This document shows positions 11,456-63,385 of a stretch of DNA of 64,000 nucleotides, in pieces. The notes beneath the pieces are model-generated. The model saw only the letters and a list, made by a program, of their open reading frames with translations, searched no databases and was not told the DNA's origin. Numbering within the stretch: position 1 is the first letter of the stretch; every line of letters begins with the position of its first letter. The translations under genes were made by a program, and so were the position numbers. Source of the DNA: an uncultured Bacilli bacterium (lineage in GTDB: Bacteria; Bacillota_I; Bacilli_A; RF39; UBA660); the NCBI GenBank assembly GCA_934086145.1, contig CAKOHV010000002.1, forward strand, positions 450 to 64,449. Direction: 5' to 3'.

Positions 11456-11527
11456 AAAAAAACTCCTCACTACGCATCTCTGCTATTTAAATTATAATAT
11501 TTAAAAAGAATAAAATCAATGCCCTTA

Positions 11528-12649
11528 TTAAACTAGGTTTTCGTATTCTTTTAAAATATAATCATCCGTCATCCCCGCTATATAATCAATAACTTTCCGT
11601 TCCATCGATGTTTCTTCTAGGTATTGTGCACTCATGTCATTTAAAAAAACGGTAAAAATATTTTTAGTCGTATCATTACTTTTTAAAGCTTTTAAACATT
11701 TATCAAAGACTGTATTAAAAACTGTTTTATAAAATTCTAACATTTCCTCAGTATTAGCATGGGCATATATATGCTCATAATTAAATTTTTTTAACTTCTT
11801 TATGGCTTCAAAAACTTCATCACTCATCGCTAAATAATTTTTATTTAAACTATGGGCGAGAATATCATTAATTATCGTATCAATTATTTGGGCATTAGTA
11901 ATACCTAAAACATCTGTTATATCTTTTGGTATACTATCAACTTCAATAATTCCTAATCTTATAGCATCTTCTATATCTCGGCCTATATAAGCAATAATAT
12001 CACTAACTCGCACAACACAACCTTCTAAGGTCATTGGTACTAATTTTTTTATTAAACCTTTTTCTTTATATGAATCATAGTATTGTTTTAAAAATTTGGC
12101 TTTAGTCTTTTTAACGGGACGATACTCTTTTAATTCTAATTCTCCATTATGACACATAATAGCATCTAAGACTTGTAAAGTAATATTACTTCCAACCCCA
12201 TTGTTTTCTAAAAACATTAAAGTTCGGACACTTTGAATATTATGATTAAAGTAGCCGGCGCCAACTCTTACACTTATCTCATTTAAAATATGTTCACCAG
12301 CATGACCAAAAGGTACATGTCCTAAGTCATGACCCAAAGCGGCCGCTTCGATCAAATCTTCATTTAAACAAAGAGCCCGCCCAATCGTTCGTGCCACTTT
12401 ACTAACCATTTGAACATGCGTCATTCTTTTACTAATATTGTCATTATCATTAAAACTAAAAACCTGTGTTTTATCCATATACCTAGTATAAGAAAGAGAA
12501 TAAATAATCCGATCTATATCGCGATAAAAAGGTGTTCTAATACTTTCCTTTACTGCAAAAAAACGAATTGCTTCATCATCTTTACACGCAAAAGGCGATA
12601 AATAATTATTTTTAACTAACATATTTTTTTTGATAGTTTTCCAATCCAT
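11528..12649 (-). CDS. HD-domain dNTP triphosphohydrolase-like protein (dGTPase family)
   Basis: 373 aa with the HD motif in AALGHDLGHVPFGHAGEH and length typical of dGTPase-like proteins. Confidence 0.75.
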   Translation of the reverse strand: MDWKTIKKNMLVKNNYLSPFACKDDEAIRFFAVKESIRTPFYRDIDRIIYSLSYTRYMDKTQVFSFNDNDNISKRMTHVQMVSKVARTIGRALCLNEDLIEAAALGHDLGHVPFGHAGEHILNEISVRVGAGYFNHNIQSVRTLMFLENNGVGSNITLQVLDAIMCHNGELELKEYRPVKKTKAKFLKQYYDSYKEKGLIKKLVPMTLEGCVVRVSDIIAYIGRDIEDAIRLGIIEVDSIPKDITDVLGITNAQIIDTIINDILAHSLNKNYLAMSDEVFEAIKKLKKFNYEHIYAHANTEEMLEFYKTVFNTVFDKCLKALKSNDTTKNIFTVFLNDMSAQYLEETSMERKVIDYIAGMTDDYILKEYENLV

Positions 12650-12672
12650 CTTACCTCACCTTGTCCATTTAT

Positions 12673-13836
12673 CTATTTTATTCTAATTTCAATATCACTT
12701 ACAGGATATGTACAACATGGATGAATATAATTCTCATCTTGTTCATTCTTATCGCGTTTATCATTAACTACTTTAACCTTGCCGTTAATAAGCTTCGTTC
12801 GACATAGCCCACAACGCCCCGTATGGCACGCACTAGGAACATATATTTTAGCCTTCTCTAACGCTTCTAAAATTGTCTTATTATTAAAACACTCACATTT
12901 CAAAAAAGCCTCTTCAATTCTAACTATCATATTATACTTTTTAATTTTCTTAATATTACATTTAGGTAAATATTCTTCATACCTAATAAACTTTCGCGGT
13001 AATTTAAACTCTTCTAATTCTTTATTTAAGTACTTTAAGAAGCCTTCATAGCCACATGCAAAAATAGAAAATTCACTTAATCCTAACTCTTTAATCAATT
13101 CCGAAGTTATAAAACCATTTAAGTATCCTTCAACTTCTTCATCACTTAAGATAATTTCTAAATTAAAATTATCTAACTCATCAGCTAATCTAAATAATTC
13201 TCTTTTAAAAATAATATCTTCTTCTCGACGACAATTATATAATAAATATAAATTATAGTCTTCATCATGCGCTTCTAAAGCTTTCGCCATAGCTAAGAAT
13301 GGTGTTATTCCCCTTCCGGATGCTAAACCGACAACATTTTTATTATCACGTAACTTCGTATAATAGAAATTACCAAAAGGCCCCGAAATAGTAAGTTTTT
13401 CCCCTATTTGCGCTTCATCTACCAAATAAGTAGACATTGTTCCATTCTCAACCTTTTCAACCGTAATTCTATATTCTCCCTTTGAAGCATCATCTAAAGA
13501 AGAAGTAATAGCATAAGGCCTTGTAATAAATTTACCATCAATCATTTTGGTAACAGTTATATATTGCCCTGCTCTAAAATAAGGCAATTTCTTTTCATCA
13601 TTAGCTTTTAAAACCAAACTCTTACATATTGCTGTTTCTCTAATGATATTTTTAATATAAACTTCCTCTTCCTTAACCGCCAAGCCCTTTTTTAATTTTT
13701 CTAATGGTTTATTCTTTTCTATTAAGTCATTAGCTCCATCTAAAAGCCAATCTTCACGATCCAAAGCTAAGTTTTTATATTTTAACAAATCTAATTTACT
13801 TAAAGAACTAATTTTTACTTTTACCATCCTATTCAC
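12673..13836 (-). CDS. Ferredoxin-NAD(P)+ reductase-like flavoprotein with C-terminal 2Fe-2S ferredoxin domain
   Basis: Motifs seen: RPYAITS (RxYS FAD site), GLASGRGITP (NAD(P) site), and C-terminal CHTGRCGLC...CC (plant-type 2Fe-2S pattern). Confidence 0.7.
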   Translation of the reverse strand: MNRMVKVKISSLSKLDLLKYKNLALDREDWLLDGANDLIEKNKPLEKLKKGLAVKEEEVYIKNIIRETAICKSLVLKANDEKKLPYFRAGQYITVTKMIDGKFITRPYAITSSLDDASKGEYRITVEKVENGTMSTYLVDEAQIGEKLTISGPFGNFYYTKLRDNKNVVGLASGRGITPFLAMAKALEAHDEDYNLYLLYNCRREEDIIFKRELFRLADELDNFNLEIILSDEEVEGYLNGFITSELIKELGLSEFSIFACGYEGFLKYLNKELEEFKLPRKFIRYEEYLPKCNIKKIKKYNMIVRIEEAFLKCECFNNKTILEALEKAKIYVPSACHTGRCGLCRTKLINGKVKVVNDKRDKNEQDENYIHPCCTYPVSDIEIRIK

Positions 13837-15349
13837 CTTCTATATCTTTTATTGTATACCAAGCACTCTTCATTCCTGCTAAATATAAAGCTTCACTAGT
13901 GGCTCCATAATAAGAATAAGCTCCACCAAACCTTAAACCTTTAAAAATAAGTTCTTTAGATGCTGTTAAAAGACGGGGTAAAACATTATCTAAGCCCTCC
14001 AATTTATAACCATTAATTTGATTATTAGTTCGCAAAGCAAAGGAAACCGGTGTTAAGATTTCAATCTCTTCAATATAATCACTAATATTAACGCCAATTT
14101 TTTTGGAAAATAAATCAATCATTCGACTAGCTATTCTTTCACTTTCACTATAATAATTATCAAGACTTACACTACTCTCAAAGACATTGGTAGAAAAATA
14201 AGAGGTTAACGTAACAATACTGGTTCCTTCTAAGCTAGCATTCGGACATACCTTATTAATACATTGTACTAAAACATCATTATTTTCTCCTATTAAACCC
14301 ATTTTAGAATATTCCACATCACTATCTAAACTATTATATAAATAATAACTATAGTTTTTAATTCCTAGTTCTTCTATTGAACGATTTAAACCTAAATATA
14401 CCTTAACCTCACGCATTCCTAGTTTTCTTTGATTACAAAAACGCAAAGCTTTATCATTTAATTCTTCTGGATTTACCATCTGACTAACTAAAGTATTAGG
14501 ACTAATATTCGCAATTAAATGATTCGTATAATAAATAGTTCCATCATTAACCATAACGGCATTAACTTCACCATAAGTTGTCATAATTTTTTTTACTTCA
14601 CAATTATACTTAATCTCTCCATGATTTTCTAAATAACGATCTAGTAATTTATAAAGAATTTCACTTGTTTTATGAACTGGTATATAAAGACCTAAATCAA
14701 TATAATCATAAAAACTTGCCGCATAAGTAACAAATGATAACTCTGTTTCTGTTGATCCAAACAAAAGCCAAAAAACATTTAAGACTTCTTGAATTTCCAA
14801 TGGAATACCTAGAGCATCCATAACTTTACTTACTGAATAAGAAGCTATTCTAACAAAATTATCATAGTTTTCTTTCATATAATCTTGATCAACTAAACCA
14901 TCTTTTTCATCAATATATTTTAAGGCCTCACGACATTCCGAAGCCAAATCAAAAAAAGGTGTTAAATACTTAGTTGAACCAGGAAAATATTCTTCCATTC
15001 GTTTAATAAAACGTTCAATGCCAAAAGGTAATGTAAAATCTTTTCCACTTCCATCATCCGTTATAACACGAAAAGCTTCTGGTAACCTAACTAACTTTAA
15101 ATCATCGGCTATCTTTAATTCATCAAACACTTTATTTAAATAACCACTTTTATTAGTCATATCGTATAAACCTAGAGGGGTATATGATGTATCAAAACTA
15201 AATCTTCCTTTAACAAAGGTTTTATTATAACCTAAACAATCATTGTTCTTTTCTAAAATTAAAACTTTATATCCTTCTAAAGCAACTTTTAAGCCAGCTA
15301 CTAAACCACTTATGCCCGCACCAATTACTATAACATCATAATCATTCAT
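13829..15349 (-). CDS. FAD/NAD(P)-dependent oxidoreductase (phytoene-desaturase/amine-oxidase-like)
   Basis: N-terminal dinucleotide fold YDVIVIGAGISGLVAGLKVALEGYKVLILEKN. It overlaps the downstream reductase gene by 8 nt. Confidence 0.7.
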   Translation of the reverse strand: MNDYDVIVIGAGISGLVAGLKVALEGYKVLILEKNNDCLGYNKTFVKGRFSFDTSYTPLGLYDMTNKSGYLNKVFDELKIADDLKLVRLPEAFRVITDDGSGKDFTLPFGIERFIKRMEEYFPGSTKYLTPFFDLASECREALKYIDEKDGLVDQDYMKENYDNFVRIASYSVSKVMDALGIPLEIQEVLNVFWLLFGSTETELSFVTYAASFYDYIDLGLYIPVHKTSEILYKLLDRYLENHGEIKYNCEVKKIMTTYGEVNAVMVNDGTIYYTNHLIANISPNTLVSQMVNPEELNDKALRFCNQRKLGMREVKVYLGLNRSIEELGIKNYSYYLYNSLDSDVEYSKMGLIGENNDVLVQCINKVCPNASLEGTSIVTLTSYFSTNVFESSVSLDNYYSESERIASRMIDLFSKKIGVNISDYIEEIEILTPVSFALRTNNQINGYKLEGLDNVLPRLLTASKELIFKGLRFGGAYSYYGATSEALYLAGMKSAWYTIKDIEGE

Positions 15350-15407
15350 CTAAATTCCTCTATTCTAAGTAAAATTATAACATTAAAAAAAGAGTATTTC
15401 TACTCCT

Positions 15408-16988
15408 CTATTTAAATAATTGTTCTTTCATTTTTTGATAATTTAAAAGAATATATCCTAAAATAATAAGACTTCCTAAAATCAAGATAAAAATATGCGT
15501 ACAAACTGCTATCACATATCTACGATAAACTGGTAATAAAAATGGTACTATTCCAATAACTAAAGACACCATTAAAGGAATAAAAATAATTAAACGTTGT
15601 TTAACAATTAAGTCTTCATCTTTCTCTTTCCAAGCACAGAACTTAAAGTCTAATAATATTCCTAAAAGACTTGTAAAAATACAGGCCACAAAAGGGAAAA
15701 CAAAGGAAGCTATTTTCATAAATACCGTTGTGTTAAAAGTCATATTTAAAATTAACCAATTTATTATTATAAAAGGTCCATTAATTATGGTACTAACCAA
15801 AAACTTAACCAATAAAACATTCGCAAAACGTAACGGAATTACTTTATATAATAAAATATTTTCTCTTTCAATTGATAAAGAAGAAACACTATAACAATTA
15901 ATACTAGCTAATAAAGCTAATATTCCCGGAACATACAAATTAAAATAATATTTAAAGTATTCCATCTTTTCAATTTTATTAATTGGTAATAACACACAAA
16001 CAAGAAAAAAGATTAAGGAAAGTCCCAAGCCTAATGAAAGGACTTGACGTAAATATACTTTGTTATTCCATAAACTAATTAACTCTTTTTTAAATAAACT
16101 AACAAATTTTCCATGTTGTTTAACCTTCAAAGCAAGAACTTTTTTCTTAATTTTAACTCCTCTTAATAAAGAACCCATTTTTAAATAATTATAAGATAAG
16201 AACTTAATAAATAAAATAAATAAAATAATTGGTAATGAAAGAGCTAACAAAATAATTACTACATTTAAATTATTTAAAGCAAGATTAGCTAAATACAAAA
16301 AAGGATCAATAATATTTATTTTTTTAATTAATTGGCTAACTAAACCAGATAAACTTTTATAATGAATATTTCTAAATAATAGATAACCACCACCTAATAA
16401 CAAGCCATATATTAATGTTTTACTTAAAATATAAACAATTTTTTGATAATTAACTTTAAGATAGTTATTAAGAAAAGAACAAATTGTGGCAATAACAATT
16501 GGGACTAAAGGTAAAGTTAAAACAATTAATAAATATACAAACCCCATCGTCTCATCCACTTTGACATAATTATTATAAGCTAAGATAGCCGGCAAACAAA
16601 TAACTAACAAGTAAAATAAATTTTTCAAATAAACTTTAAAAAGCTTACTTAAAATAATTTGTTCTTTTGTCAGTGGTAACGAGTATAAAACCTCAAACTC
16701 TGATGTATTAAATAAGGTTCCCGATATTGATAATAAATCATTAAACAAGAGCATTATTGTACAAACAATACAAGAAATATTTAAAAGATCTACTTTATTT
16801 AAAATGATACTTCCTAATAAATTGTAGATATAATACAAGGCAATTCCTAAACCAATCCCAATTATGGCTAAAAAAATTAATTTTAGTTCTGAAGAATCAT
16901 TAACATCTGCTTGTTTAGACATCTGGACACGATTTATATCCCCCAAATCTAAAATATTGACATAAATTAACTTGATTAACTTATTCAT
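15408..16988 (-). CDS. Polytopic membrane protein, putative ABC exporter permease
   Basis: 526 aa with many hydrophobic helices. It overlaps the upstream ABC ATPase gene by 8 nt. Confidence 0.6.
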   Translation of the reverse strand: MNKLIKLIYVNILDLGDINRVQMSKQADVNDSSELKLIFLAIIGIGLGIALYYIYNLLGSIILNKVDLLNISCIVCTIMLLFNDLLSISGTLFNTSEFEVLYSLPLTKEQIILSKLFKVYLKNLFYLLVICLPAILAYNNYVKVDETMGFVYLLIVLTLPLVPIVIATICSFLNNYLKVNYQKIVYILSKTLIYGLLLGGGYLLFRNIHYKSLSGLVSQLIKKINIIDPFLYLANLALNNLNVVIILLALSLPIILFILFIKFLSYNYLKMGSLLRGVKIKKKVLALKVKQHGKFVSLFKKELISLWNNKVYLRQVLSLGLGLSLIFFLVCVLLPINKIEKMEYFKYYFNLYVPGILALLASINCYSVSSLSIERENILLYKVIPLRFANVLLVKFLVSTIINGPFIIINWLILNMTFNTTVFMKIASFVFPFVACIFTSLLGILLDFKFCAWKEKDEDLIVKQRLIIFIPLMVSLVIGIVPFLLPVYRRYVIAVCTHIFILILGSLIILGYILLNYQKMKEQLFK

Positions 16989-52161: not shown

Positions 52162-52902
52162 TTATTTATATTTTCGACTACTAACTTTAGTAATCAGCAC
52201 AACTACTATTAAGAGCAACAATATGGCTCCGATAGCACATAAAATAGCATATTCTTTCTTTATTTTTTCATCTTCACTTTTATCTTTTTTAGTATCATCA
52301 ATTGTTGTAGCTTCATCTTTTTTAGTACTTAATTTTAAATAAATATTTTTTTTATTGTCACTTTGTGTAAACGTCCAATAATATATATCACCTTTTTTAG
52401 AATCAGCATTATTTTCTAAGACTTTTAATTTAGTCTTAACTTTAATCGTTACACTATCTAAATTACTATAATTTTTTAAATAAATTATGCCATTATTGTC
52501 AGTAAACAAAGTTAAAGTCTTGGCTTGATTGTCTTTTTCAAGATAAGCAGATACAAATGATGTTTTTACACTTCGAGCTTTATTATAATTACTTACCGAA
52601 AATTTATTTTTGTAACTAAATAAATAACCATTATCAATTTCTTTCATTGTTTGTTCATAGTAACTTACTCCCGATAAAGCAACATCAGGTTCTGTATCAG
52701 CAACATTAACATCATTATAGATTGGTACATATTTTCTAAAAATACCTTTTAAACTTTCCTTTGTATTATATTGATCAACCAAGGCCGTAATATTTATTTC
52801 TTCTACTACCTTATTTTCATCAATTTCCAAAGTTACATCAGCACTACAACCACAAAGAAATAACATCATAACAAACAGTAATATAGCTTTTCTTTTTTTC
52901 AT
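52162..52902 (-). CDS. T4SS-associated lipoprotein with additional C-terminal TM anchor
   Basis: Lipobox LFLCGC, a soluble domain of about 190 aa, a K/D/E linker, and TM CAIGAILLLLIVVVLITKV. It occupies the PrgL/VirB8-like slot between hydrolase and coupling protein. Confidence 0.6.
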   Translation of the reverse strand: MKKRKAILLFVMMLFLCGCSADVTLEIDENKVVEEINITALVDQYNTKESLKGIFRKYVPIYNDVNVADTEPDVALSGVSYYEQTMKEIDNGYLFSYKNKFSVSNYNKARSVKTSFVSAYLEKDNQAKTLTLFTDNNGIIYLKNYSNLDSVTIKVKTKLKVLENNADSKKGDIYYWTFTQSDNKKNIYLKLSTKKDEATTIDDTKKDKSEDEKIKKEYAILCAIGAILLLLIVVVLITKVSSRKYK

Positions 52903-52906
52903 CTTC

Positions 52907-55273
52907 TTATCCCCTCACATTGGCCGAATTATTATAATATCCATCCATTTTAACCCCCCAATATCCAGGTGATGAGAAACCTCTTTTAGTAAATAAAACT
53001 CCACTAGTATTTCCCATTGCTTCTGCACATATATAATGTTTAGTTTCTTCATCAATCCCAACAATCAAAACAATATGCCCATTAGACTCAAGTAAATCTC
53101 CTGGTTCTAAAACTGCACTATCAGTCAAAACAACTTTTTGAACACCCGACATATTTTGGAATTGGTTCGCCAAAATAGCCCAAGACATATTAAATCCCCC
53201 GTTATGAATAGTCCAGGAAACAAAACCAGAGCAATCAAAACCACAATAGTTATATGACTGACTATTAGCATACGTATGACAAGCTGTACTACCCCAATTG
53301 GCTTTTGCATAGTCATTAATGGGTCCTTCATGACCGCCACCCCAATAATAAGGTATTTTAACTTGATAATTATTACCGAGCTCAGCAATCAACGTAACCG
53401 CCGCTGCCACAACACCAGCCCTTGTTCCATATCCAGCCTTTTTAACATTCTTTTCAATCAAACTATTAAATTCTTCTAAACTTGTTCCCTTACTACTTAA
53501 AAATGACGATAAGTCTTGATGTAAAATTTCATTCCCATCACTAGAAATAGTATAATCACCATAATCAATATTTCCAGCACTATTTGAATGACACTTAGCT
53601 GAACTAAAATCACTTACATTATAAACACTTTGTAAGATTTGTTCATAAGACTTTCCTTCATTAGCCATATTTATAAATTGACTAGACTTCGTACTATTAT
53701 AACTAGTAGCATAAACATTTCCCGTTGAATCAAGTAAGACTTTTCCTTTAACATCTTCTGCTAAAGCTAATACTTCTGTCTTACGTTGCTCACTTAAAGC
53801 ACTTTTCCATAATGTTCCACTTTTAATTTCTGGTGAATAAATTGAAATTTTTCCTCTATCCAAACGATAAATATCTTTCTCGTAATCCCAATAAACTTGA
53901 TCCTGCTCACAAGCACGCATTCTTATTTTTTTAGTCGTTGTATTATATCCATAGAAACAAGAATCAGGGTTGCCTGGACACATTCCACTATTTCTTGTAA
54001 GTGCAAAGTTACGCGCTGCCACAATTTGTGCTTTGATAGCTTCATCAGGTGAATTTGGTCCAATCTCAGCCAAAGCAACTCCTAAAGTATACTTTTCAAA
54101 ATCAATCGTTTCTAAAACGGTATAATTTCCTTGTGTTGCATCACAATTAACAAGTTCAACTTTAACATCATCTAAAGAAACATTACCCGTATTAGTAACA
54201 CCTCTTAAATCATAAGTACATTGTGTTCCAGAATTTCTTTTTTTACTATTACCGGATGAACCAGCCCCAAGGCAAACAAATAAAATAAGAAGAAAAAGAA
54301 TTAAAAAACCTATTATAAACCAAGCAAAAGGATTAGTAAGTAAAAAGTGTTTTAAGGCTCCAAGAGCAGCCTTAGCAGCCATCCTAAAAGGATTACTGGC
54401 ACCTTCCTTAATATTGTTTGTTTTACTTAAAAGACTACCAACTTTTCCTTTAATACCACCACTTTTTTTACTACTTGAGCCATCACTACCACTAGAAGTT
54501 CCAGCAGCATCTCCACTCTTTTTATTGCCAAACTTATTTAAGAAGCCCTTACTTGAAGTGCCTTCTTCTTCAGCACGGCCCTCTTTCATTTTTTTCCCGA
54601 AAGAAAAATTTTTTCGATTCAATTCATCACGTTTAGAATTAGCACGCGAATCTTTGGAATATCCGTTACCAAAAGGCTCACTACCATTCATATTAGAACG
54701 AATACGTGAAGCAGGAGAATTATCGCGAACTGGAACAGAATCTTTTCCAGTCCCCCCAGGATTAGCCTCATTATTACCTTTGGCTTGATTATCTGAAGCT
54801 CCATTTGCTAAAGCTGCCGGCCCAGTTAAAGCTTTCGCTTCTTCATCATTTTCATTCTTTTTTTTATTTTCATCATCATCTTTTTTTGAAGGATCAGCCT
54901 CTTTATTAGCAGAATCAGGACTGGATACTTTATCACCATTCAAATTATTATTTTCGCCGACATTTTTATTATATCCATTTCTTACAGGTCTTCCAAAAGG
55001 ATAAGGTTGATAACTAGAACCTCCATCATCAAAGTCATCTAGTGAAGCAGAATCATCCTGCGGAATATAATCATCAGCCTCCCCATATTGGTTATCAGCA
55101 TCCATATTATGTAAAATATTATTTAAAATAATATCACTTTGTTCATCATCATTATAATCATCAAAGCCAACTTGCGAAGCCAATGAAGAAAGAATTTCTT
55201 GTTCACTTAAGCCATTAGGTACACTTAGCCCTAATTTTTTTGCTATTTCTTTTGTATCATCATTTAGAGCCAC
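52907..55273 (-). CDS. T4SS peptidoglycan hydrolase: disordered N-terminus + TM + SpoIID/LytB-like domain + NlpC/P60 endopeptidase
   Basis: YTLGVALAEIGPNSPDEAIKAQIVAARNFALTR is a SpoIID-type signature. The C-terminal YYWGGGH...GFDCSGFVSW...GHIVLIVG carries the NlpC/P60 Cys-His. TM at FAWFIIGFLILFLLILFVCLG. Confidence 0.8.
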   Translation of the reverse strand: MALNDDTKEIAKKLGLSVPNGLSEQEILSSLASQVGFDDYNDDEQSDIILNNILHNMDADNQYGEADDYIPQDDSASLDDFDDGGSSYQPYPFGRPVRNGYNKNVGENNNLNGDKVSSPDSANKEADPSKKDDDENKKKNENDEEAKALTGPAALANGASDNQAKGNNEANPGGTGKDSVPVRDNSPASRIRSNMNGSEPFGNGYSKDSRANSKRDELNRKNFSFGKKMKEGRAEEEGTSSKGFLNKFGNKKSGDAAGTSSGSDGSSSKKSGGIKGKVGSLLSKTNNIKEGASNPFRMAAKAALGALKHFLLTNPFAWFIIGFLILFLLILFVCLGAGSSGNSKKRNSGTQCTYDLRGVTNTGNVSLDDVKVELVNCDATQGNYTVLETIDFEKYTLGVALAEIGPNSPDEAIKAQIVAARNFALTRNSGMCPGNPDSCFYGYNTTTKKIRMRACEQDQVYWDYEKDIYRLDRGKISIYSPEIKSGTLWKSALSEQRKTEVLALAEDVKGKVLLDSTGNVYATSYNSTKSSQFINMANEGKSYEQILQSVYNVSDFSSAKCHSNSAGNIDYGDYTISSDGNEILHQDLSSFLSSKGTSLEEFNSLIEKNVKKAGYGTRAGVVAAAVTLIAELGNNYQVKIPYYWGGGHEGPINDYAKANWGSTACHTYANSQSYNYCGFDCSGFVSWTIHNGGFNMSWAILANQFQNMSGVQKVVLTDSAVLEPGDLLESNGHIVLIVGIDEETKHYICAEAMGNTSGVLFTKRGFSSPGYWGVKMDGYYNNSANVRG

Positions 55274-55347: not shown

Positions 55348-57132
55348 CTATAATCCGCCACCGGCTCCAAATGAATCAAGTTCTTCTTGTGTACATATAA
55401 TTCTAATACGCATTCGTCGACTACCACATATAAATAAGGCATCTCCTTGATTATAATATTTAATACTATCCATTTCACTTTCGTTTAAGTCAACAAGTAA
55501 CGATAAATCCTCAACAGCTTGCTTTTTCAAGTTCATAACTAAATAGTAAGCTGCATTATCAAAAATAGCTTTACCATGCATAATTAAGTTTGGTGCAGCA
55601 AAGTCTGTTGGTTGTTGTGTAATAATAACCGTTCCTGTATTATACTTTCTTGCACGTCTTTGAATTTGCGCTAAGAACTCCGCCCCTAACTCATTTCTTG
55701 TTGATAATAAAACATGAGCTTCATCAACACACAAAACAGTGGTTGTTTCTTTATCTAAACATAAGCCCCAAGCAAATTTCAAGATGTTAAAGAATAAGGC
55801 ATTTCTAATATTCTCATCACTATTCATCAATTCTTTAATATTAAAAACAATAATATTACTATCAATTTTTAAAGTTGTATGTCCCGTAAAATAATATCTT
55901 AACTCACCTACTAAAGGACGAACCTTCAACTCAAGTCTTTCCATAATATCACGTTCACGTGTCTTTTCTGGCATTGATAATAAGCGACCTCTTATTGTTG
56001 CATAAACATCATCAAAAGTTGGAAAGTCTTGAGGTGTTAATTTAGAAAAGTCTGTATTAAAGTCTATTCGATATCTCTTATAAGTATCTTGAACTACTTC
56101 ACTAAACATCGCCAAAACATCTTCTTCAATAGATGGTGAATAATATTTCATAAAAGCTTTTAAAGATTGTAACCCTCTTGTTAATACAGTATACCCTAAG
56201 CCTTGTTCTAATTCTTCTTGGTCAGCATCAGCAACGATTTCCAATGGATTAATCATTCCATAGTCGCCACCTTTACCTAAGTCAAGGAAACTACCATTAA
56301 CATTTTTGCACATTTCCTCAAGTTCACCTTCAGGATCGACACAAATAACTTTATAACCATTTCTAATATGACTTCTAATTAATAATTTAGCAGCAGTTGA
56401 TTTACCACTACCAGATGTACCTAAAATAATCATATTAGCATTATTACGGTTATGTTCTTTCTTTAACTTAAATAAGAACTGATTAAATAAGATAACACCA
56501 CCTGAGAAATCAACACCTAATAAAGTTGAATCACCAGGGTCCTTAATACTATCGAAAACAAAAGGATACATTGCTGAAATAGTTACAGAAGGAATTGGCG
56601 TACCAATTCTTTCTTCAACGTCTTGTTTTGGGAAAATTGGAATCATTGATTTTAAAACTTTTTCTTGTTCAAACATCAGTGGAATGGCACGCATTCCTAA
56701 GGCATCAATATAACTCTTAACTTGCATTAAACGCATTTCTAATTCTTCTGGATTATCAGCAGTAATCATAACATGTAATTGAAAGTCGAAAATACGAGCT
56801 TGTGTAGCTGCTAACATTGAAATAAAACTTTCCAACGATTCATAATCTTGACGAATTCTTTCCTGAATTGTTTGGTCTTTTTCAGATTGATATCTCATCT
56901 TCAAGTCAGCTATTTCTTTATTTAACATTGATCTTAAAGTTGAAAATTCAATCGGAATATGTTTTGCAACAATTTTTACCCCAGCTAAATTAGTAAGATT
57001 AGCTAAAAAGCCTGGACTAATATATTTAGGATAACTAATAACCGACAAAATTGTTGCATTCTTACCACTTATTACGAAATCTTTATAATTAAATAAAATT
57101 CCTTTTGGCGCAATTTCACTTTTTAGATTCAT
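55348..57132 (-). CDS. virB4: VirB4-family T4SS ATPase, C-terminal (ATPase) part
   Basis: Walker A GTSGSGKST, VICVDPEGE, Walker B VLCVDEAHVLL, and IITQQPTDF. Confidence 0.85.
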   Translation of the reverse strand: MNLKSEIAPKGILFNYKDFVISGKNATILSVISYPKYISPGFLANLTNLAGVKIVAKHIPIEFSTLRSMLNKEIADLKMRYQSEKDQTIQERIRQDYESLESFISMLAATQARIFDFQLHVMITADNPEELEMRLMQVKSYIDALGMRAIPLMFEQEKVLKSMIPIFPKQDVEERIGTPIPSVTISAMYPFVFDSIKDPGDSTLLGVDFSGGVILFNQFLFKLKKEHNRNNANMIILGTSGSGKSTAAKLLIRSHIRNGYKVICVDPEGELEEMCKNVNGSFLDLGKGGDYGMINPLEIVADADQEELEQGLGYTVLTRGLQSLKAFMKYYSPSIEEDVLAMFSEVVQDTYKRYRIDFNTDFSKLTPQDFPTFDDVYATIRGRLLSMPEKTRERDIMERLELKVRPLVGELRYYFTGHTTLKIDSNIIVFNIKELMNSDENIRNALFFNILKFAWGLCLDKETTTVLCVDEAHVLLSTRNELGAEFLAQIQRRARKYNTGTVIITQQPTDFAAPNLIMHGKAIFDNAAYYLVMNLKKQAVEDLSLLVDLNESEMDSIKYYNQGDALFICGSRRMRIRIICTQEELDSFGAGGGL

Positions 57133-57716
57133 GAAGGCATCACCGTCCCAAAACTTGTCGTCATTCCACCATTCAAGAAGTTATCTAAAATCATACGTAA
57201 GTCTGAATTTGAAACTTGAACAGAATTAATTGAACAATTTGCCAAACCAGCAATTAAATTATGAATTCTCTTTTGAACTAATTCCAATCTTTTCTCTTTA
57301 AACAAAATGAAATATTCTGTATCAACAACATTATATTCTGCTCCCATAAAAGCATTAGCTTTATTAAGATCTTGCATAATAAGTTTTCTTATAGCTCCAT
57401 CAGTACATCTCTGATAAAGTAATTGTAGTTGTGATAAGTATAAATTTATATCAACCGGTCTATCTGCTACCATTAACCAGAATTCATAATCAATCATATT
57501 ATAGAAATTCTGCAAATTAAACAAGATATTATCAATTTCTCCTGAATCAAGAATAAAAATATTTTTAGGTGATATTTTTATTCCCGTAACGTAAGCTCCA
57601 TTATCTAGTTGAATCATACCATTCATTATATTTCTTATAGGTACCCAATCTTCTGTATATCTACTAGAAGTTTGTACGGCTACCGCGCTTTGGTCTGTCG
57701 CTGCCATAACTAGCAC
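57129..57716 (-). CDS. virB4: VirB4-family N-terminal domain encoded as a separate ORF
   Basis: 195 aa with WVPIRNIMNGMIQLDNGAYVTGIKISPKNIFILD, typical of the Gram-positive VirB4 N-terminus. Its TGA overlaps the ATG of the ATPase part (ATGA at 57129-57132). Confidence 0.7.
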   Translation of the reverse strand: MLVMAATDQSAVAVQTSSRYTEDWVPIRNIMNGMIQLDNGAYVTGIKISPKNIFILDSGEIDNILFNLQNFYNMIDYEFWLMVADRPVDINLYLSQLQLLYQRCTDGAIRKLIMQDLNKANAFMGAEYNVVDTEYFILFKEKRLELVQKRIHNLIAGLANCSINSVQVSNSDLRMILDNFLNGGMTTSFGTVMPS

Positions 57717-58005
57717 ACCATCCTCTCCAATAATACTTTTTAATTCCTGTTAAAAAGCTCCACATATTTTTTAATAAGGTTAAAACATTATGATAATAAA
57801 CTGGTAAAGGGGCTACTAGCAAGGCCGCAATTAAAGCGGGCGATGCTAGTAATAACAAGGTTGCAATATCATTTGTTTTAAATAGCAACAAAAGTAAACC
57901 AGCTATGGCAACTCCTGTTACAAAAATTGTTAAGTCAACGCCAGTAAACAAACCTAGGATAAGCCTTGATTTTTTAGCATTAGCCGGAATAATATATTTA
58001 TTCAT
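57664..58005 (-). CDS. PrgI/VirB3-like small T4SS membrane protein
   Basis: 113 aa with two TM helices (LILGLFTGVDLTIFVTGVAIAGLLLLLF and LLLLASPALIAALLVAPL). It sits immediately upstream of VirB4, as PrgI/Orf17 do. Confidence 0.6.
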   Translation of the reverse strand: MNKYIIPANAKKSRLILGLFTGVDLTIFVTGVAIAGLLLLLFKTNDIATLLLLASPALIAALLVAPLPVYYHNVLTLLKNMWSFLTGIKKYYWRGWCASYGSDRPKRGSRTNF

Positions 58006-58022: not shown

Positions 58023-60875
58023 CTATTTTTTACTTTCTTGTTTACGTTTTCTACTTTGAGCATCTACGTATTCATCAGACTTAATAATTTCATAAGTTGC
58101 AGATTCGGAAGCCTTTTTCATATCTTTAAACGGATCGCCACTAGGCGCAATTGTCTCCTTGATTTTTGTAGAATTAGTAGAAAGATATCTATTAAATTCA
58201 TCAACAGAAACTTTATTTTTTACTACACTACCATGAGAATCCTTAATAGTATAAGTTGGCCCAGATGAAGTAAATTCAACGTCAACATGATTACTGTTAT
58301 CTAGATTCATTTCGTACTTTTTACCAATCTGCATTTTTGATAAATCAACCTGACCATTTAAAATATTAGCACCAAAACTTTGTTCAAGATAATTTTCAAG
58401 TCGCATACCAGCAATCGTTGCTCCATTAGCTAAACGAAATGCCTCTTGGTTATCTCTAAAATAAGCTCTTATAGCACCTGACATTGCATTTTCACCAGTA
58501 GTAATTGCTTCAACCAACTGAGCTTGTACAGCTTTGGCTTTTTCGGCTTTTAATACATCAGTAGCAGCTTTTATTTGAGCATTTAAATTAGCAGATGCTT
58601 TTGCAAATTCAGGGCTTGTTGGATCCAAGACAAAATCACTAAGTTTTTCGTGTTTAGCTTCAAAATCAGCTTTAAAAGCTTTTTCAAACTTTGTATTATA
58701 TTCACTATCTCCCATTGTCAAAGAATTACCAAAATTTTTTCTAAAATCCTCATAAGCGGCTTTATCAGCTGCAGACATAGCTGCTGGATTGGCATTATAC
58801 TGTGCTTCCAATGCAGCTATTCTTGTTGCAAAAGCAGAATCATATTGAGCGTCAGTCATAGAAGGAGCACGAGCTGCAATTCTTTTACGAGCATTTTCAT
58901 ATTGTGCCTTAAACAAAGGTTCAAACGTCGATTTTTCAGTATTCTGAAGTTCAGTATAAACAAAATCCTTAACACTCATGGCCTTTAATCTATTCAAGTT
59001 ATCTTGTGCAGAATCTATAGTATCAGCTCTAACACTATTTTCAAGATAGGCTTTTAAACCAGCGACTTTATTTAAAGCATTAATTTGATTATCATAGTAT
59101 GACGTATCAACTGATCCGCCAGTTAAGAAAGAGCTAACTGTACTACGTGCATCATTAATATGGCCAGCCATTGAACCCTTTATCAATCCATTGAAAGCTT
59201 CATCATTAGCGTGTTGTTCATTATATGCCTTCCTGTGAACTCTAGCGTCATTAGCCGCTCTAACACCATTAGCTGTAGCATCTTTTACATCACGGAGTTT
59301 CATAGGATTTTTACGGAAATCACGAGCACCTCGATATCCAACTCTAGCACCAGCTGATAAACCACCTGCAACTCCACTAGCTGTCGAACGAATGAACCCT
59401 CTACCAAAAGCCTGAGCTTTACCAGTTAGTGTATCAGCTCTTTTCATTTCACCTCGAGCTCTCTGAACTCCAACACCAAAGTTTTGAGCAAAACTTCCTG
59501 CTGCTGCTAATCCTGTAGCCGCTGCTGTATAAAGACCACCTTCTGCCAATTTTTGACCTAATCCTAACTTCATATCCCCTGCTGGAATACCAAAAGTATC
59601 AGAAATAAGTTTAGGTGCTTGCTTAGCAAAAATAACTAAACCTAAAATCAAAATAACTCTAACAAAAAAGCCAATATCCATACTAAGCTCTTGATTATTA
59701 AATAAAATATTATTAGTTGACGATATTGTATTTAAATGGGTAATTATGTATACAACAACATACACAACTGATAATCGGACAAAAACTTCTAAAAAAGTAC
59801 TAATAATATTTTTTACCCATTTATCAAAATTAGGTCTGAACTTAGGTACAATTTGTAAGATCAAAGGAATTGGGGCAATAATTTGATAATAAGCTAATTT
59901 AGCAGCTCTTACTGCCATATCAATACTAAATGATAAAAAGGCATAAACAACAAAAGCTCCTACAAGTGTTGAAAAGAACCAATAATATTGAATTTCACCT
60001 TTAATATAGTTATCAGCAAAAACTATAAAAATTCCAAAGTCACCAGTACTAGTCGCATATGAGAAGGCTTGAGCCAAAGTAATTTCATCAGCCAGCGCAA
60101 TATCAACAGCATTAGTAACACCACCAATAACACCTGCACTACAAGCAGCGACAGTTCCGGCAACAGCAAGTGCACCAAATCCAAATGTAAAAACACTCGC
60201 CAATATTGCAGCTCCAACACCTATTGCGCACCCAGCAAGACTAATCGTCGTAATAGCCGGATGAACAAAGTAATCAGCATTTTTTCCAACTATATCATCC
60301 TCTGAAATATCATAAAGTTCTGATGGATGAAAAAAAGCCTGCCAAATATAAGTCGCTACAACATTACCTGCCGAATCAAACAAAGCTGAATCATCCTGAA
60401 CTTCACCAGCTGGCAAAGCCACTTCTCCATTGACAACAATATCATCATGAGAAGTTGTTCTAGAATCAGAAGCAAAGAACATTTTTGCTATAATATTACT
60501 TTGTAAAATGATATCTTGGCCCTGATAAATAAGATTAAAAATAACTGGTGTTAAAGCAAGGCCTAAAATACAAGTCACAACGCCTGTAATGACTTTCTTA
60601 CCAGACATATCTCCTTTTCCTAATTGATCAGGGTCAATAATAGCACGCAAAATAGAATAAGCTAAAACAAATAACATAGCAACGCCAATAATTATATATA
60701 ATTTATTAGCAATTGTTTGAAAAGCATCACTTGAAAGCAATTTTTGGGCAGCTAAAAGAGTGTAAATTTTATACATTTTAGCTATAGTTCCATAAACAAT
60801 ACCATCAAGTGTCAATAGCACTCCAGTAAAGGCCGCACCAATAGTTTCCCCAAGATCAAAAATTAATAAGTTCAT
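58023..60875 (-). CDS. VirB6-like polytopic T4SS channel protein with a soluble C-terminal extension of about 480 aa
   Basis: The N-terminal 470 aa or so hold many TM helices. The C-terminal half is Ala/Lys/Asn-rich and helical-looking. RBS GAAGGTGA. Confidence 0.65.
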   Translation of the reverse strand: MNLLIFDLGETIGAAFTGVLLTLDGIVYGTIAKMYKIYTLLAAQKLLSSDAFQTIANKLYIIIGVAMLFVLAYSILRAIIDPDQLGKGDMSGKKVITGVVTCILGLALTPVIFNLIYQGQDIILQSNIIAKMFFASDSRTTSHDDIVVNGEVALPAGEVQDDSALFDSAGNVVATYIWQAFFHPSELYDISEDDIVGKNADYFVHPAITTISLAGCAIGVGAAILASVFTFGFGALAVAGTVAACSAGVIGGVTNAVDIALADEITLAQAFSYATSTGDFGIFIVFADNYIKGEIQYYWFFSTLVGAFVVYAFLSFSIDMAVRAAKLAYYQIIAPIPLILQIVPKFRPNFDKWVKNIISTFLEVFVRLSVVYVVVYIITHLNTISSTNNILFNNQELSMDIGFFVRVILILGLVIFAKQAPKLISDTFGIPAGDMKLGLGQKLAEGGLYTAAATGLAAAGSFAQNFGVGVQRARGEMKRADTLTGKAQAFGRGFIRSTASGVAGGLSAGARVGYRGARDFRKNPMKLRDVKDATANGVRAANDARVHRKAYNEQHANDEAFNGLIKGSMAGHINDARSTVSSFLTGGSVDTSYYDNQINALNKVAGLKAYLENSVRADTIDSAQDNLNRLKAMSVKDFVYTELQNTEKSTFEPLFKAQYENARKRIAARAPSMTDAQYDSAFATRIAALEAQYNANPAAMSAADKAAYEDFRKNFGNSLTMGDSEYNTKFEKAFKADFEAKHEKLSDFVLDPTSPEFAKASANLNAQIKAATDVLKAEKAKAVQAQLVEAITTGENAMSGAIRAYFRDNQEAFRLANGATIAGMRLENYLEQSFGANILNGQVDLSKMQIGKKYEMNLDNSNHVDVEFTSSGPTYTIKDSHGSVVKNKVSVDEFNRYLSTNSTKIKETIAPSGDPFKDMKKASESATYEIIKSDEYVDAQSRKRKQESKK

Positions 60876-60886
60876 TTAGTCACCTT

Positions 60887-61306
60887 CTAACCAATCCCAC
60901 ATGTTCCATACCAACCTAAAAGTTCAAAGAAAAAATTAATTAAACTTGGTATAAAGAATAGCATCAATGCTAAGAATATTCTTTTTCCTGTTTTTTTAGT
61001 GGCTTTCGCCAATGCATCCTTATCTTCACTAGCTATTGCCTTAACAAATTCTACAATCGATAAAACAACTACCAATGATGGCGCCAAAAATTTCATAACA
61101 TTAAAAATTTGTTGCAAATAATTAGCAAAAGTCCCATCAACAGTTGGGTCCCCAAAAATAGCATCACAACCAGCATCTTGACTATCATTTCCATCTAATG
61201 CATAGATAATACTATCATCATTAAGCCCTCGAGCTTCTACTACATTAAAGGATAAAGTGAATATCATTAATAATGCCAAGAAAAAATATAAACTTTTTTT
61301 TAACAT
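60887..61306 (-). CDS. VirB2/TrbC-like pilin candidate A (signal peptide + two hydrophobic helices)
   Basis: ATG at 61306 after AGAGGTG. Signal peptide MLKKSLYFFLALLMIFTLSFNVVEA. The mature part has ..C..-helix-KAIASEDKDALAKATKKTGKR-helix(FFIPSL)-..C. Confidence 0.5.
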   Translation of the reverse strand: MLKKSLYFFLALLMIFTLSFNVVEARGLNDDSIIYALDGNDSQDAGCDAIFGDPTVDGTFANYLQQIFNVMKFLAPSLVVVLSIVEFVKAIASEDKDALAKATKKTGKRIFLALMLFFIPSLINFFFELLGWYGTCGIG

Positions 61307-61381
61307 AAAAACACCTCTAATACCAAAATTATAACACAAAAAAAATGATATTAAAACAAATATCATTTCATATTTAAGCAA

Positions 61382-61705
61382 TTAACAAGTTCCTGAATTA
61401 ACTATACATTCTTTACAAACTGCATAGTCGCCTTCTTCGTTGAAAGTATCTGCTAAAGAGAACGCAAATCCAACGAGTGAAGGAACAAAGAATATTAAAA
61501 TTCCAGCCAAAGCTCTCATACCTAAATTTTTGGCAGCTTTTTTAATTTCTTTATCATCACTTGCTACAACAGCCTTACCTAAATCAATCATACCAAAGAT
61601 TATAACTAATAGAGGTATAACAATTTTAAAAACTCCTAAAATTCTACCTACTAAAACCCAAACATCTTTAGTACCGCTACAAAAAGCAACATCTAATAAA
61701 TTCAT
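61382..61705 (-). CDS. VirB2/TrbC-like pilin candidate B (paralog of candidate A)
   Basis: 107 aa: ..C..-helix(IVIPLLVIIFGMIDL)-KAVVASDDKEIKKAAKNLGMR-helix(FFVPSLVGFAF)-...CKECIVNSGTC. The core is shared with the 139-aa neighbour. Confidence 0.5.
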   Translation of the reverse strand: MNLLDVAFCSGTKDVWVLVGRILGVFKIVIPLLVIIFGMIDLGKAVVASDDKEIKKAAKNLGMRALAGILIFFVPSLVGFAFSLADTFNEEGDYAVCKECIVNSGTC

Positions 61706-61767
61706 ACATACATCTCCTTTACTTACTCATAATTGTACCAAATATTCGTAATCTGTCAAGTTTTTAT

Positions 61768-62844
61768 CTATTCCTTAACGATTCCAAACAACCTAGCCCC
61801 TCTATTGCCATCATTAGCTGGTTTATTCTTATCAAAACCAAGTTTATTTAAGAACTCATCTAAAACACGATGACGCTCTTTTTTATCATCAAGCGGTGGA
61901 ATATTTTGAAATACTGAGCATCTTGCTTCATATTCAAAATCTTTAACATCGTTCGAATCAAGTAAACTTTTATTAAGAACAACTTTCTTTCCCTTAATCT
62001 TATCCAAGATATTACGATCTCTTCTAATCATTTTATTAAGCATTAAGGTCGAAGGCTCAATCAAATAAATCATTTCTGAACAATTAGCTTCTTCTGAGCT
62101 ATCATTAACATCTACAAGAACAACTTGTGTTCCCATTGTATTTCCCTTAATAAAAGCTCCTAATTCTTTACTACTCATACTACGTAGGTTTTGATCGTTA
62201 AAGAACATAAAATCATTTTTATCTAATTCAATTCCTAAAACGGAATAGTTTTCCTCAAGTTGTTTTTTCAACATATATATTAAGGTTGTTGCTCCAGCAT
62301 GATCTGTTAAATCTTTAAAACCAATTACACGAGTTCCACCTACCATAGGCATTGCTATACTGGCATTAATAAAGTTTCTTTCCTCTCTATTATTACCACG
62401 ACGATTATCTTTTCTTGAATTATTTGGGACTTCCATTTCCTGTGAAGCCATCATATTACTAGCACCTAACATATGGTACTGAGCAACATCTTTATACGTA
62501 TTAGGATTATCAATCAAATAAACTATGCCATCTATATTCTTAGTAAAGTTATAAATTCCCATCGAAACAAGTTCTGACATATATTGAGGTGAATTGACCT
62601 CTGGTGAGTCATCTAATAATAGAATAACTCTTGTCATATCCATTCCGAATGATAGTCTTTGTATTTGTGAAATATCTCGATAATTTCTAATAGCAGTTAT
62701 ATCAAGAATCATTTTATTAAAGAAGAAGTTATCAAACTGTGCTACTAATTCATCAGCATCAAATTCTCCATTTATACTTTTTATTAAATCTATATTTAAG
62801 TTTGAAAGCATTGCTGCATATTTATTCGAAACAATTACATTCAT
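61768..62844 (-). CDS. TadZ/CpaE-like protein: receiver-like N-domain + MinD/ParA-fold domain with degenerate Walker A
   Basis: ATG at 62844, 5 nt after the upstream stop, with an AGGA RBS. The C-domain follows the MinD beta/alpha order (RVIGFKDLTDHAGATTLIYMLKKQL, VVLVDVN, MIYLIEPS, KVVLNKS, IPPLDD), but the P-loop lacks GK[ST]. Confidence 0.5.
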   Translation of the reverse strand: MNVIVSNKYAAMLSNLNIDLIKSINGEFDADELVAQFDNFFFNKMILDITAIRNYRDISQIQRLSFGMDMTRVILLLDDSPEVNSPQYMSELVSMGIYNFTKNIDGIVYLIDNPNTYKDVAQYHMLGASNMMASQEMEVPNNSRKDNRRGNNREERNFINASIAMPMVGGTRVIGFKDLTDHAGATTLIYMLKKQLEENYSVLGIELDKNDFMFFNDQNLRSMSSKELGAFIKGNTMGTQVVLVDVNDSSEEANCSEMIYLIEPSTLMLNKMIRRDRNILDKIKGKKVVLNKSLLDSNDVKDFEYEARCSVFQNIPPLDDKKERHRVLDEFLNKLGFDKNKPANDGNRGARLFGIVKE

Positions 62845-62848
62845 TATC

Positions 62849-63385
62849 CTACACACACTCCTGACCAATTGAATCTTGTGGAAATGATATTTTAGATGTT
62901 TTTCCATCAATTTCAAAAGTTAAAATATCACCTATGACAGGCAAATTAAACTTATAAAATACTACAACATCATAGTAAGCAGCATCATTTTCAGCCCCCC
63001 ACATTTTCTCTTTTCTAAAACAATAATAATATTTACCTTTATTTTTTGAATATGAGACTTTTTTATTATAAGCTAGGTCATCTACTCCGCAATAACCAGT
63101 TGGGCAAGTCCCCTTAGTATTATAAGAACTCCCAAGCAAAAAAAGGTTAATTGTTTGCAGTGTTCCAAAATTACCCGTCACAGTCGTCCCCGATTTTACT
63201 TTCGATTCCATACTTTTCCCAGTTTTATTAGTTATTCCATCATGTTTTTCTATAATAGTTAACATTTCATTTTTTATTTTAAATACCTTAGAATAACTTA
63301 TGGAAACTGCTAAATACCCTGAAAACAATAGTATAAATAGAACAATCATTCCAAGTAACCATACATTAGAAATTGCATTTTTCAT
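62849..63385 (-). CDS. N-terminally anchored four-Cys extracytoplasmic protein (paralog 2)
   Basis: 178 aa. It has an N-terminal hydrophobic helix (VWLLGMIVLFILLFSGYLAV), the shared core YSK.(F/Y)K(I/V)K...CP(T/S)...PVIGD(I/V), and a C-terminal Cys. Confidence 0.6.
   Translation of the reverse strand: MKNAISNVWLLGMIVLFILLFSGYLAVSISYSKVFKIKNEMLTIIEKHDGITNKTGKSMESKVKSGTTVTGNFGTLQTINLFLLGSSYNTKGTCPTGYCGVDDLAYNKKVSYSKNKGKYYYCFRKEKMWGAENDAAYYDVVVFYKFNLPVIGDILTFEIDGKTSKISFPQDSIGQECV

Follow-up and report, generated by a model that had tools for sequence, protein, structure and literature searches.

We analyzed a stretch of 64,000 nucleotides (nt) from the genome of an uncultured RF39 bacterium of the Bacilli (GCA_934086145.1, contig CAKOHV010000002.1), here called the window, with attention to two adjoining open reading frames (ORFs) at positions 60887 to 61705. 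The upstream ORF, pilA-like, encodes a protein of 107 amino acids (aa) (type A), and the other, pilB-like, encodes a protein of 139 aa (type B). Both lie about 3 kb from genes for VirB3, TrsD, and VirB4 components of a type IV secretion system (T4SS), and their products are probably structural subunits of that system. Table 1 gives the coordinates of these genes and of their neighbors.

The initial annotation had described a common layout for the two small proteins, namely, a Cys, a hydrophobic helix, a charged loop, a second helix containing FF(I/V)PSL, and a Cys close to the C terminus, and this layout was indeed present in both. In the 107-aa and 139-aa proteins, respectively, the loop motif reads GKAVVASDDKEIKKAAKNLGMR and VKAIASEDKDALAKATKKTGKR, the helix 2 motif reads FFVPSL and FFIPSL, and the C-terminal motif reads CKECIVNSGTC and GTCGIG. 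Type B begins with a Sec-type leader (MLKKSLYFFLALLMIFTLSFNVVEA, residues 1 to 25), followed by an acidic ectodomain of 37 aa with C47, the hairpin, and the C-terminal GWYGTCGIG with C136. As had been noted before, only the 139-aa copy has such a leader, recognized by its KK start, hydrophobic core, and V-E-A end and by a helix at residues 2 to 18 in the AlphaFold model. The two proteins are paralogs, with 34% identity over 64 residues (BLASTP, E value of 6e-14), and the profiles of their families match each other with a probability of 98.6% (E value of 8.7e-16). The start of pilB was placed at the ATG at 61306 (MLKKS...), which is common to the homologs and has AGAGGTG in front; a mechanically called ORF of 164 aa from the TTG at 61381 was rejected because the homologs share the 139-aa ATG start. 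For type A, two other ways of reading the N terminus were considered and discarded. A lipoprotein was rejected since the residues leading up to the N-terminal Cys (e.g., AFC, NFC, or KVC) are unlike a lipobox and are not preceded by a hydrophobic leader, and processing by a prepilin peptidase was rejected since neither a G-x4-EY nor a G|F-x3-E motif occurs.

Relatives of the 107-aa protein were sought in one genome per GTDB species and were found in 303 stretches, each from a different species genome, of which 80 were retained as related loci for comparing gene order and gene arrays. All 80 belong to metagenome-assembled genomes of uncultured gut Bacilli or “Tenericutes” (e.g., “Candidatus Coprovivens” and Anaeroplasma sp.); “Ca. 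Coprovivens” is placed in Bacilli incertae sedis by NCBI, and we take it to belong to the order RF39. For type A, we aligned 54 diverse homologs, the most divergent having 54% identity, and for type B 39 homologs, with identities as low as 42%; a joint alignment covered both types. Counted as clusters at 90% identity, the 107-aa protein had 475 homologous clusters and the 139-aa protein 100; those that are named in a source are almost all called “hypothetical protein.” A HMMER scan of 1.84 billion cluster representatives returned 10,285 relatives at an E value of ≤1e-3 and 6,466 at ≤1e-10, and a homolog search with the joint alignment found the same family only. By tblastn, no match to the 107-aa protein appeared in 72,556 plasmids.

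The membrane hairpin (helix-loop-helix) that had been proposed for both proteins was recovered in AlphaFold2 models built on the family alignments, with a predicted local distance difference test (pLDDT) score of about 90 within the hairpins. The type A model (mean pLDDT of 81.5, about 92 in the hairpin) has helices at residues 13 to 48 and 51 to 86 and an additional short helix at 93 to 102 bearing a CxxC motif, while the type B model (mean pLDDT of 77.5) has, after the leader helix, hairpin helices at residues 60 to 92 and 96 to 130. Each protein has two hydrophobic segments, the loops carry charges of +6/-3 and +7/-3 (K/R versus D/E), and the tails are acidic, so the loop is placed in the cytoplasm and both ends outside. 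The Sec-type leader of type B supports this topology independently, as do larger paralogs in related species, which have leaders and hydrolase or Cys-rich ectodomains N-terminal to the hairpin. Thus, both hairpin ends, and with them the Cys residues, are predicted to lie on the same extracytoplasmic side, and not on opposite sides of the membrane, the arrangement that the initial annotation had named as incompatible with its proposal.

Conservation of the Cys residues was high. C9, C97, C100, and C107 were invariant in the type A alignment, and C47 and C136 were invariant in the type B alignment; that is, the pair at the two ends of the hairpin is kept among homologs. The expectation of a Cys at both ends was therefore borne out for both proteins, with the correction that the 107-aa type has four invariant ones and not two. 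In the joint alignment, C9 corresponds to C47 and C107 to C136, and these two columns, together with P31, K44, R64, and P75 (type A numbering), were the only invariant ones. Among 146 newly found relatives (the best new representatives of clusters at 50% identity), the N-side Cys was kept in 140, the CxxC in about 130, and the last Cys in 116.

We then counted the Cys residues N-terminal (after removal of the leader by a crude estimate) and C-terminal of the hairpin in 395 family proteins. In 374 of them, the count was odd on each side, giving an even total, and the combinations of N-side and C-side Cys seen were 1+1, 1+3, 1+5, 3+3, 5+3, 7+3, 9+3, 11+3, 17+3, and 23+1. Of the 66 proteins having two or more Cys on the N side, 53 had an odd number there (binomial P of 7e-7, a significance that is overstated because the sequences are related). 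Such odd-plus-odd parity is expected of one disulfide across the hairpin with the remaining Cys paired locally. It agrees with the suggestion, made in the initial annotation, of a disulfide tying the two ends, and it would fit a bridge within one subunit and one between neighboring subunits equally well; that the bridge takes the place of head-to-tail cyclization is something we infer.

At the level of families, the sequence comparisons support membership in the PF18895 (T4SS_pilin) kind. The 107-aa protein matched this profile with 23.8 bits (gathering score of 26.6 bits; E value of 4.8e-5) along positions 3 to 70 of 71, through residues 13 to 80, so that the flanking Cys fall outside the match. 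Counting matches at an E value of ≤0.1, PF18895 was found in 53 of the 54 type A relatives (best E value of 8.1e-8) and 28 of the 39 type B relatives (best E value of 1.6e-5), and many cluster representatives carry a precomputed assignment to it. CagC (PF16943) was matched by the 107-aa protein (E value of 0.016) and by 24 of the 54 type A relatives (best E value of 1.1e-3), always below the gathering threshold. The 139-aa protein, for its part, resembled the Mycoplasma family Mbov_0396 (NF045889) over profile positions 39 to 118 of 306, with 19.8 bits against a cutoff of 70 bits (E value of 4.5e-4). Weak matches to the same family were found in 20 of the 39 type B relatives (best E value of about 3e-5) and to MMCAP2_0566 (NF045848) in 14 of the 39.

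The pilA gene has expression signals of its own. The promoter-like site in front of it is near consensus. Requiring 10 or more of 12 matches within the 130 nt upstream of the pilA start, we detected equivalents in 78 of 79 related loci, versus 5.9% of random windows, typically 26 to 35 nt from the start in the loci printed. Longer upstream starts listed for some orthologs (MSEGDV... and MNEGDV...) were rejected because this conserved promoter falls inside them. Downstream, a hairpin followed by a T run was present within 63 nt of the type A stop in 47 of 57 loci, versus 1.3% of random windows. The stem sequences vary among loci, which indicates that the conserved feature is the structure. A standard terminator scan misses the pilA hairpin because its stem has one G-C pair and the scan requires at least three. 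Within an operon, a dedicated strong promoter together with a leaky terminator is usual for a subunit needed in large excess; hence, type A would be the abundant major subunit, made in stoichiometric excess.

The genes downstream of pilB encode much of a T4SS of the monoderm type (Table 1), and this gene order was shared by dozens of the 80 related loci. Directly downstream comes a protein of 950 aa, weakly VirB6-like, which in addition to pLS20_p028 matches the C-terminal part of Mbov_0396 (residues 175 to 303; E value of 8.2e-7), both below the cutoffs. The 113-aa protein that follows weakly matches the N terminus of a Mycoplasma VirB3-VirB4 fusion (E value of 0.049). The VirB3-like, TrsD-like, and VirB4 genes abut or overlap (57129 to 58005 region) and do so likewise in every related locus, which marks this split arrangement as a conserved architecture and not as a frameshifted VirB4. 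No genes for VirB5, VirB7, VirB9, or VirB10 were found in the locus, and no relaxase or integrase domain was found among the 37 window ORFs scanned. Beyond the VirD4 gene, the neighbors are housekeeping genes (DedA, RmuC, UppP, and a class I tRNA synthetase of the Trp/Tyr type).

Table 1. Features of the T4SS locus in the window, in order along the reverse strand
Feature	Position	Strand	Basis or remark
158-aa paralog of the 178-aa protein, MKEAIGGSW then hydrophobic helix	63402..63878	-	ORF, synteny
178-aa protein, MKNAISNVW then hydrophobic helix	62849..63385	-	No Pfam or NCBIfam match
Conserved protein directly upstream of pilA	61768..62916	-	No Pfam or NCBIfam match; synteny in many related loci
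Promoter-like site, TTGACA-16 nt-TG-n-TACAAT	61732..61759	-	11 of 12 matches; in front of pilA
Ribosome-binding site AAAGGAGA	61713..61720	-	7 nt upstream of pilA ATG; read from sequence
pilA-like gene (type A), 107 aa	61382..61705 (including stop)	-	ORF; no leader peptide; proposed major subunit
Terminator- or attenuator-like element between pilA and pilB	61333..61369	-	11-bp A/U-rich stem, 6-nt loop, U run
pilB-like gene (type B), 139 aa	60887..61306	-	ORF and start codon; proposed minor subunit
950-aa polytopic membrane protein, weakly VirB6-like	58023..60875	-	pLS20_p028, E value of 2.1e-7; directly downstream of pilB
113-aa small membrane protein, VirB3/PrgI/TrsC position	57664..58005	-	Position, synteny
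195-aa TrsD-like protein, like the VirB4 N-terminal part	57129..57716	-	VirB4_plasma residues 98 to 276, E value of 6.4e-13
VirB4-type ATPase, 594 aa	55348..57132	-	P-loop_TraG, E value of 6.4e-14; AAA_10, E value of 1.2e-13
788-aa cell wall hydrolase, putative VirB1-type role	52907..55273	-	SpoIID domain, weak NlpC/P60
246-aa putative lipoprotein, no known family, kept in cluster	52162..52902	-	ORF, synteny
VirD4-type coupling protein, 967 aa	49205..52108	-	T4SS-DNA_transf, E value of 1.5e-55

Across the related loci, identity ranged from 72 to 89% for VirB4, from 49 to 86% for type A, and from 20 to 83% for type B. In one group of species (L002 to L017), VirB4 was 87 to 89% identical, the pilin-like proteins were 46 to 76% identical, and the 158- and 178-aa proteins were about 40% identical; judged from these values, VirB4 is under unusually strong constraint relative to the other components. 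The G+C content was 26 to 29% over most of the window and 32 to 33% over the T4SS region (52 to 64 kb) and at 32 to 36 kb. Because genes for a D-Ala-D-Ala carboxypeptidase, a GH25 lysozyme, and UppP are likewise present in the window, this lineage, although labeled “Tenericutes,” probably makes peptidoglycan.

Upstream of pilA, the listed ORF of 382 aa with a TTG start (61768 to 62916) overlaps its own upstream gene by 68 nt, and the likely start is the ATG at 62844 (MNVIVSNKY...), inferred from the L003 ortholog, which gives a protein of 358 aa. The 178-aa protein looks like a candidate type IV (pseudo)pilin. Together with its 158-aa paralog, it represents the last two members of a set with N termini of the MK(E/Q)A.G type, and the window ends before the remainder. 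In relatives, the cluster goes on past this point (L003, 1 to 9935; L008, 1 to 9931) with a T2SSE-family ATPase (E value of 2e-26), a weak match to CpaB/RcpC, DUF5411, two polytopic membrane proteins, and several small Cys-rich proteins in which MK(E/Q)A.G is followed by a hydrophobic helix. Going by this composition, the T4SS appears to be linked to a Tad-like filament module. In some species (L008, 1588 to 7031; L012 to L014, 3900 to 7000), the Tad-like membrane protein gene is separated from the small pilin-like genes by inserted cell envelope and redox genes unrelated to secretion, which encode a YfhO-family membrane protein, a flavin adenine dinucleotide (FAD) amine oxidoreductase, and a 511-aa protein without a Pfam match; insertions are thus tolerated at that point of the cluster.

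Taken together, these data favor, with a probability of roughly 0.55, a reading in which the 107-aa and 139-aa proteins are the major and minor VirB2-like subunits, of the PF18895 kind, of a chromosomal monoderm-type T4SS, each folded as a disulfide-closed hairpin and contributing to a pilus or conduit. Pilus formation and the disulfide are the parts that we infer, with the promoter and terminator-like hairpin of pilA as indirect support for the former. Each protein would insert in the membrane with its two ends outside the cell and the basic loop facing the cytoplasm, and one disulfide would then join the Cys before helix 1 to a Cys after helix 2, closing the hairpin in a manner comparable to the cyclization of VirB2 and TrbC; in type A, a second, local disulfide would form within the CxxC...C tail. 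The subunits would be pulled out of the membrane by VirB4 together with the neighboring VirB6-like platform and stacked into a pilus or into a short conduit through the cell wall; the invariant K44 and R64 would face the lumen. Type B would be a minor subunit, apparently replaced in related species by paralogs displaying adhesin-like or peptidoglycan hydrolase ectodomains.

Several results weigh against this reading. The 107-aa protein stays below the 26.6-bit PF18895 threshold, and the 139-aa protein has no match of its own to this profile, whose function is itself predicted and no member of which is known to form a pilus. Similarity to TrbC/VirB2 (PF04956), anticipated in the initial annotation, was not borne out: the profile was matched by none of the 54 type A relatives and by 1 of the 39 type B relatives, at an E value of 0.05. 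Along similar lines, the joint family profile showed no similarity to VirB2 of Agrobacterium (pTiC58; probability of 0.07%), and when VirB2 was compared with the plasmids by tblastn, most matches were to close relatives in Rhizobiales. Foldseek searches of the PDB with both models gave nothing at an E value of <1 (best, about 2) and no conjugative pilin, such as those of the T-pilus, the F-pilus, and Ced/Ted; the top matches were helical hairpins of a generic kind, ATP synthase subunit c and HtrII among them, and the method discriminates simple hairpins poorly. Sequence-profile searches of the PDB with both family alignments likewise returned no pilin, the chance matches being G protein-coupled receptors (GPCRs), a transient receptor potential (TRP) channel, and the Ebola virus nucleoprotein. 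The hosts are gut anaerobes. Finally, of the 210 hairpin-domain ORFs in the related loci, 74 exceed 200 aa and carry large ectodomains, so not every member of the family can be a tightly packed fiber subunit. What stands of the original proposal is thus a pair of T4SS pilin candidates, whose families match PF18895 and whose genes belong to a T4SS operon, and not direct homology to VirB2/TrbC; the tie to VirB2 comes from shared architecture, the weak CagC matches, and gene context.

The large ORFs lead to the alternative that fares best, in which the hairpin is a membrane-anchoring or docking module at the T4SS, perhaps held by the VirB6-like protein, and the two window proteins are minimal channel or assembly subunits that form no fiber. 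Hairpin-domain ORFs were single in 23 loci, paired in 34, and numbered 3 to 8 in 24, and wherever arrays were inspected, the first gene was a short, leaderless type A with four Cys. Arrays of up to eight such genes (at about 10000 to 16500 of loci centered on the match) were seen in L042, L045, L047, L057, L066, L068, L069, and L073, and their members include Cys-rich proteins without a known domain, some as long as 744 aa. The type B hairpin was also found at the C terminus of hydrolases with NlpC/P60, Amidase_3 plus NlpC/P60, Peptidase_M15_4 plus Amidase_3, or VgrG3-like lysozyme domains, and the window has the minimal version, with two genes and a separate hydrolase. A module of this kind would tether hydrolase or Cys-rich adhesin-like ectodomains, like the membrane-anchored VirB1-type hydrolases of Gram-positive bacteria. 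The missing direct similarity to VirB2 speaks in the same direction, as do reviews in which Gram-positive T4SSs are described as having no pili, and Mycoplasma proteins that appear to join a hairpin-like N terminus to a VirB6-like C terminus. However, anchoring leaves unexplained the very high conservation of a 107-aa protein that has neither leader nor ectodomain, the dedicated strong promoter and terminator of pilA, the invariant K44, R64, P31, and P75, and the matches to PF18895 and CagC. Moreover, other filament systems combine minor subunits bearing large domains with a small major subunit, and tandem arrays of 2 to 8 divergent paralogs, as in Patescibacteria, count for the pilin reading. 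We therefore regard a purely anchoring role as possible but doubtful.

A second alternative accepts pilin subunits as proposed and differs in what the Cys residues do, either binding a metal (e.g., Zn through C9, C97, C100, and C107) or bridging neighboring subunits. Type A does have four invariant Cys, CxxC included, extracellular disulfides are less expected in gut anaerobes, and no Dsb-like gene was identified, in scans not aimed at thiol oxidases. On the other hand, the two Cys of type B are too few for a Cys4 site, and it is disulfide pairing with one bridge across the hairpin that predicts odd-plus-odd parity through such varied architectures, for which reason a Zn(Cys)4 site was ranked low and this alternative as a whole seems quite unlikely. 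That unrelated small membrane proteins (holin-, immunity-, or bacteriocin-like) are in the operon by chance, and resemble pilins only in helix composition, might be argued from the weak composition-driven Pfam matches to GPCR and DUF families and from fold searches that return generic hairpins only, but it is very improbable given the same neighbors in dozens of the 80 loci, a PF18895 match that spans the full domain and recurs in nearly all relatives, the recurrent likeness to Mycoplasma conjugation proteins, and the lack of homologs in the plasmids searched.

A bolder version of the reading as T4SS pilin subunits can be formulated, although we consider it rather unlikely: uncultured, genome-reduced gut Bacilli, probably RF39 and neighboring orders, might possess a hybrid of a Tad-like filament system and a T4SS that is inherited vertically, has no relaxase, builds the first T4SS pilus of Bacillota, and serves to attach to and breach neighboring bacteria. 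Disulfide-stapled VirB2-like subunits and hydrolase-bearing minor subunits would make up this machine, and the gain would be nutrients or DNA from neighboring bacteria. If true, it would be a counterpart of the T4SS and pilin array that are essential in epibiotic Patescibacteria, and it could be the monoderm relative or source of that system.

The hosts are common, uncultured, auxotrophic gut bacteria, and a conserved contact-dependent machine may matter to their lifestyle. RF39 is described as highly genome reduced, with many auxotrophies, loss of fatty acid synthesis, and lack of numerous amino acid pathways (PMC6784871), and our literature search found no paper linking RF39 to type IV secretion. 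The locus extends pilin-like genes to a monoderm-type T4SS in Bacilli, Patescibacteria having previously been the single exception (PMC12857230 and PMC12102498), and it offers specific genes with which to address a long-standing question, namely, whether pili are built by any Gram-positive T4SS. In addition, the Cys pattern suggests a disulfide staple as an alternative to cyclization for stabilizing a hairpin pilin, and the hydrolase fusions of relatives suggest delivery of wall-degrading enzymes at the secretion machine.

Among known systems, the proteins of Mycoplasma integrative and conjugative elements (306 to 322 aa) come from related host lineages (Mollicutes-like Bacilli), and type B hairpins match their residues from about 39 to 118. 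The N-terminal third of Mbov_0396 and MMCAP2_0566 weakly matches the type B hairpin, and the C-terminal part of Mbov_0396 matches the VirB6-like protein, which suggests a hairpin-VirB6 fusion in these elements. However, scores were about 20 bits against cutoffs of 70 to 90, and a single protein there corresponds to separate genes here. With CagC, the VirB2 homolog of Helicobacter pylori, the resemblance consists of weak, recurrent profile matches over the hairpin, all below threshold, while the envelope and the type of secretion system differ.

VirB2 and TrbC (the Agrobacterium T-pilin and TrbC of RP4) are cyclized head to tail by a peptide bond. Like them, the Bacilli proteins are small, have two long hydrophobic helices and a basic loop, and, by prediction, expose both ends outside, and their genes lie beside virB3, virB4, and virB6. 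In the Bacilli proteins, the covalent link between the ends would be a disulfide instead of that peptide bond. In contrast to VirB2 and TrbC, the proposed major subunit has no long leader (type A is leaderless, and that of type B is an ordinary Sec-type leader), the envelope is monoderm, and no sequence similarity was detected.

The closest parallel is with Patescibacteria. A 2025 survey used PF18895 and PF04956 to find arrays of 2 to 11 VirB2-like genes near VirB4 in these bacteria, accompanied by TrsD (described there as a T4SS component), PrgI/VirB3, and VirB6 and mostly without relaxases; it described Gram-positive T4SS classes as lacking virB2 homologs and the origin of the Patescibacteria pilins as open (PMC12102498). 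A FEMS review of December 2025 likewise states that VirB2 and VirB5 are absent from Gram-positive T4SSs except in Patescibacteria, whose systems it regards as the only ones among monoderms with the potential to form pili (PMC12857230). The Bacilli locus differs in its host lineage, in window proteins that fall below the PF18895 threshold, and in the hydrolase fusions and adjoining Tad-like genes of its relatives, which are not described for Patescibacteria in these two papers. It shares PF18895, at the family level, with the arrays of “Candidatus Southlakia epibionticum” and TM7x, and it shares the tandem divergent small hairpin genes beside a monoderm-type T4SS, a neighborhood with no relaxase among the ORFs scanned, and a host with a reduced genome. 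All five components of the Patescibacteria type (VirB4, TrsD, VirB3/PrgI, VirB6, and VirB2-like) are present here, and this common set marks the Bacilli system as a variant of a known one, not a new kind, with a possible evolutionary link to that of Patescibacteria.

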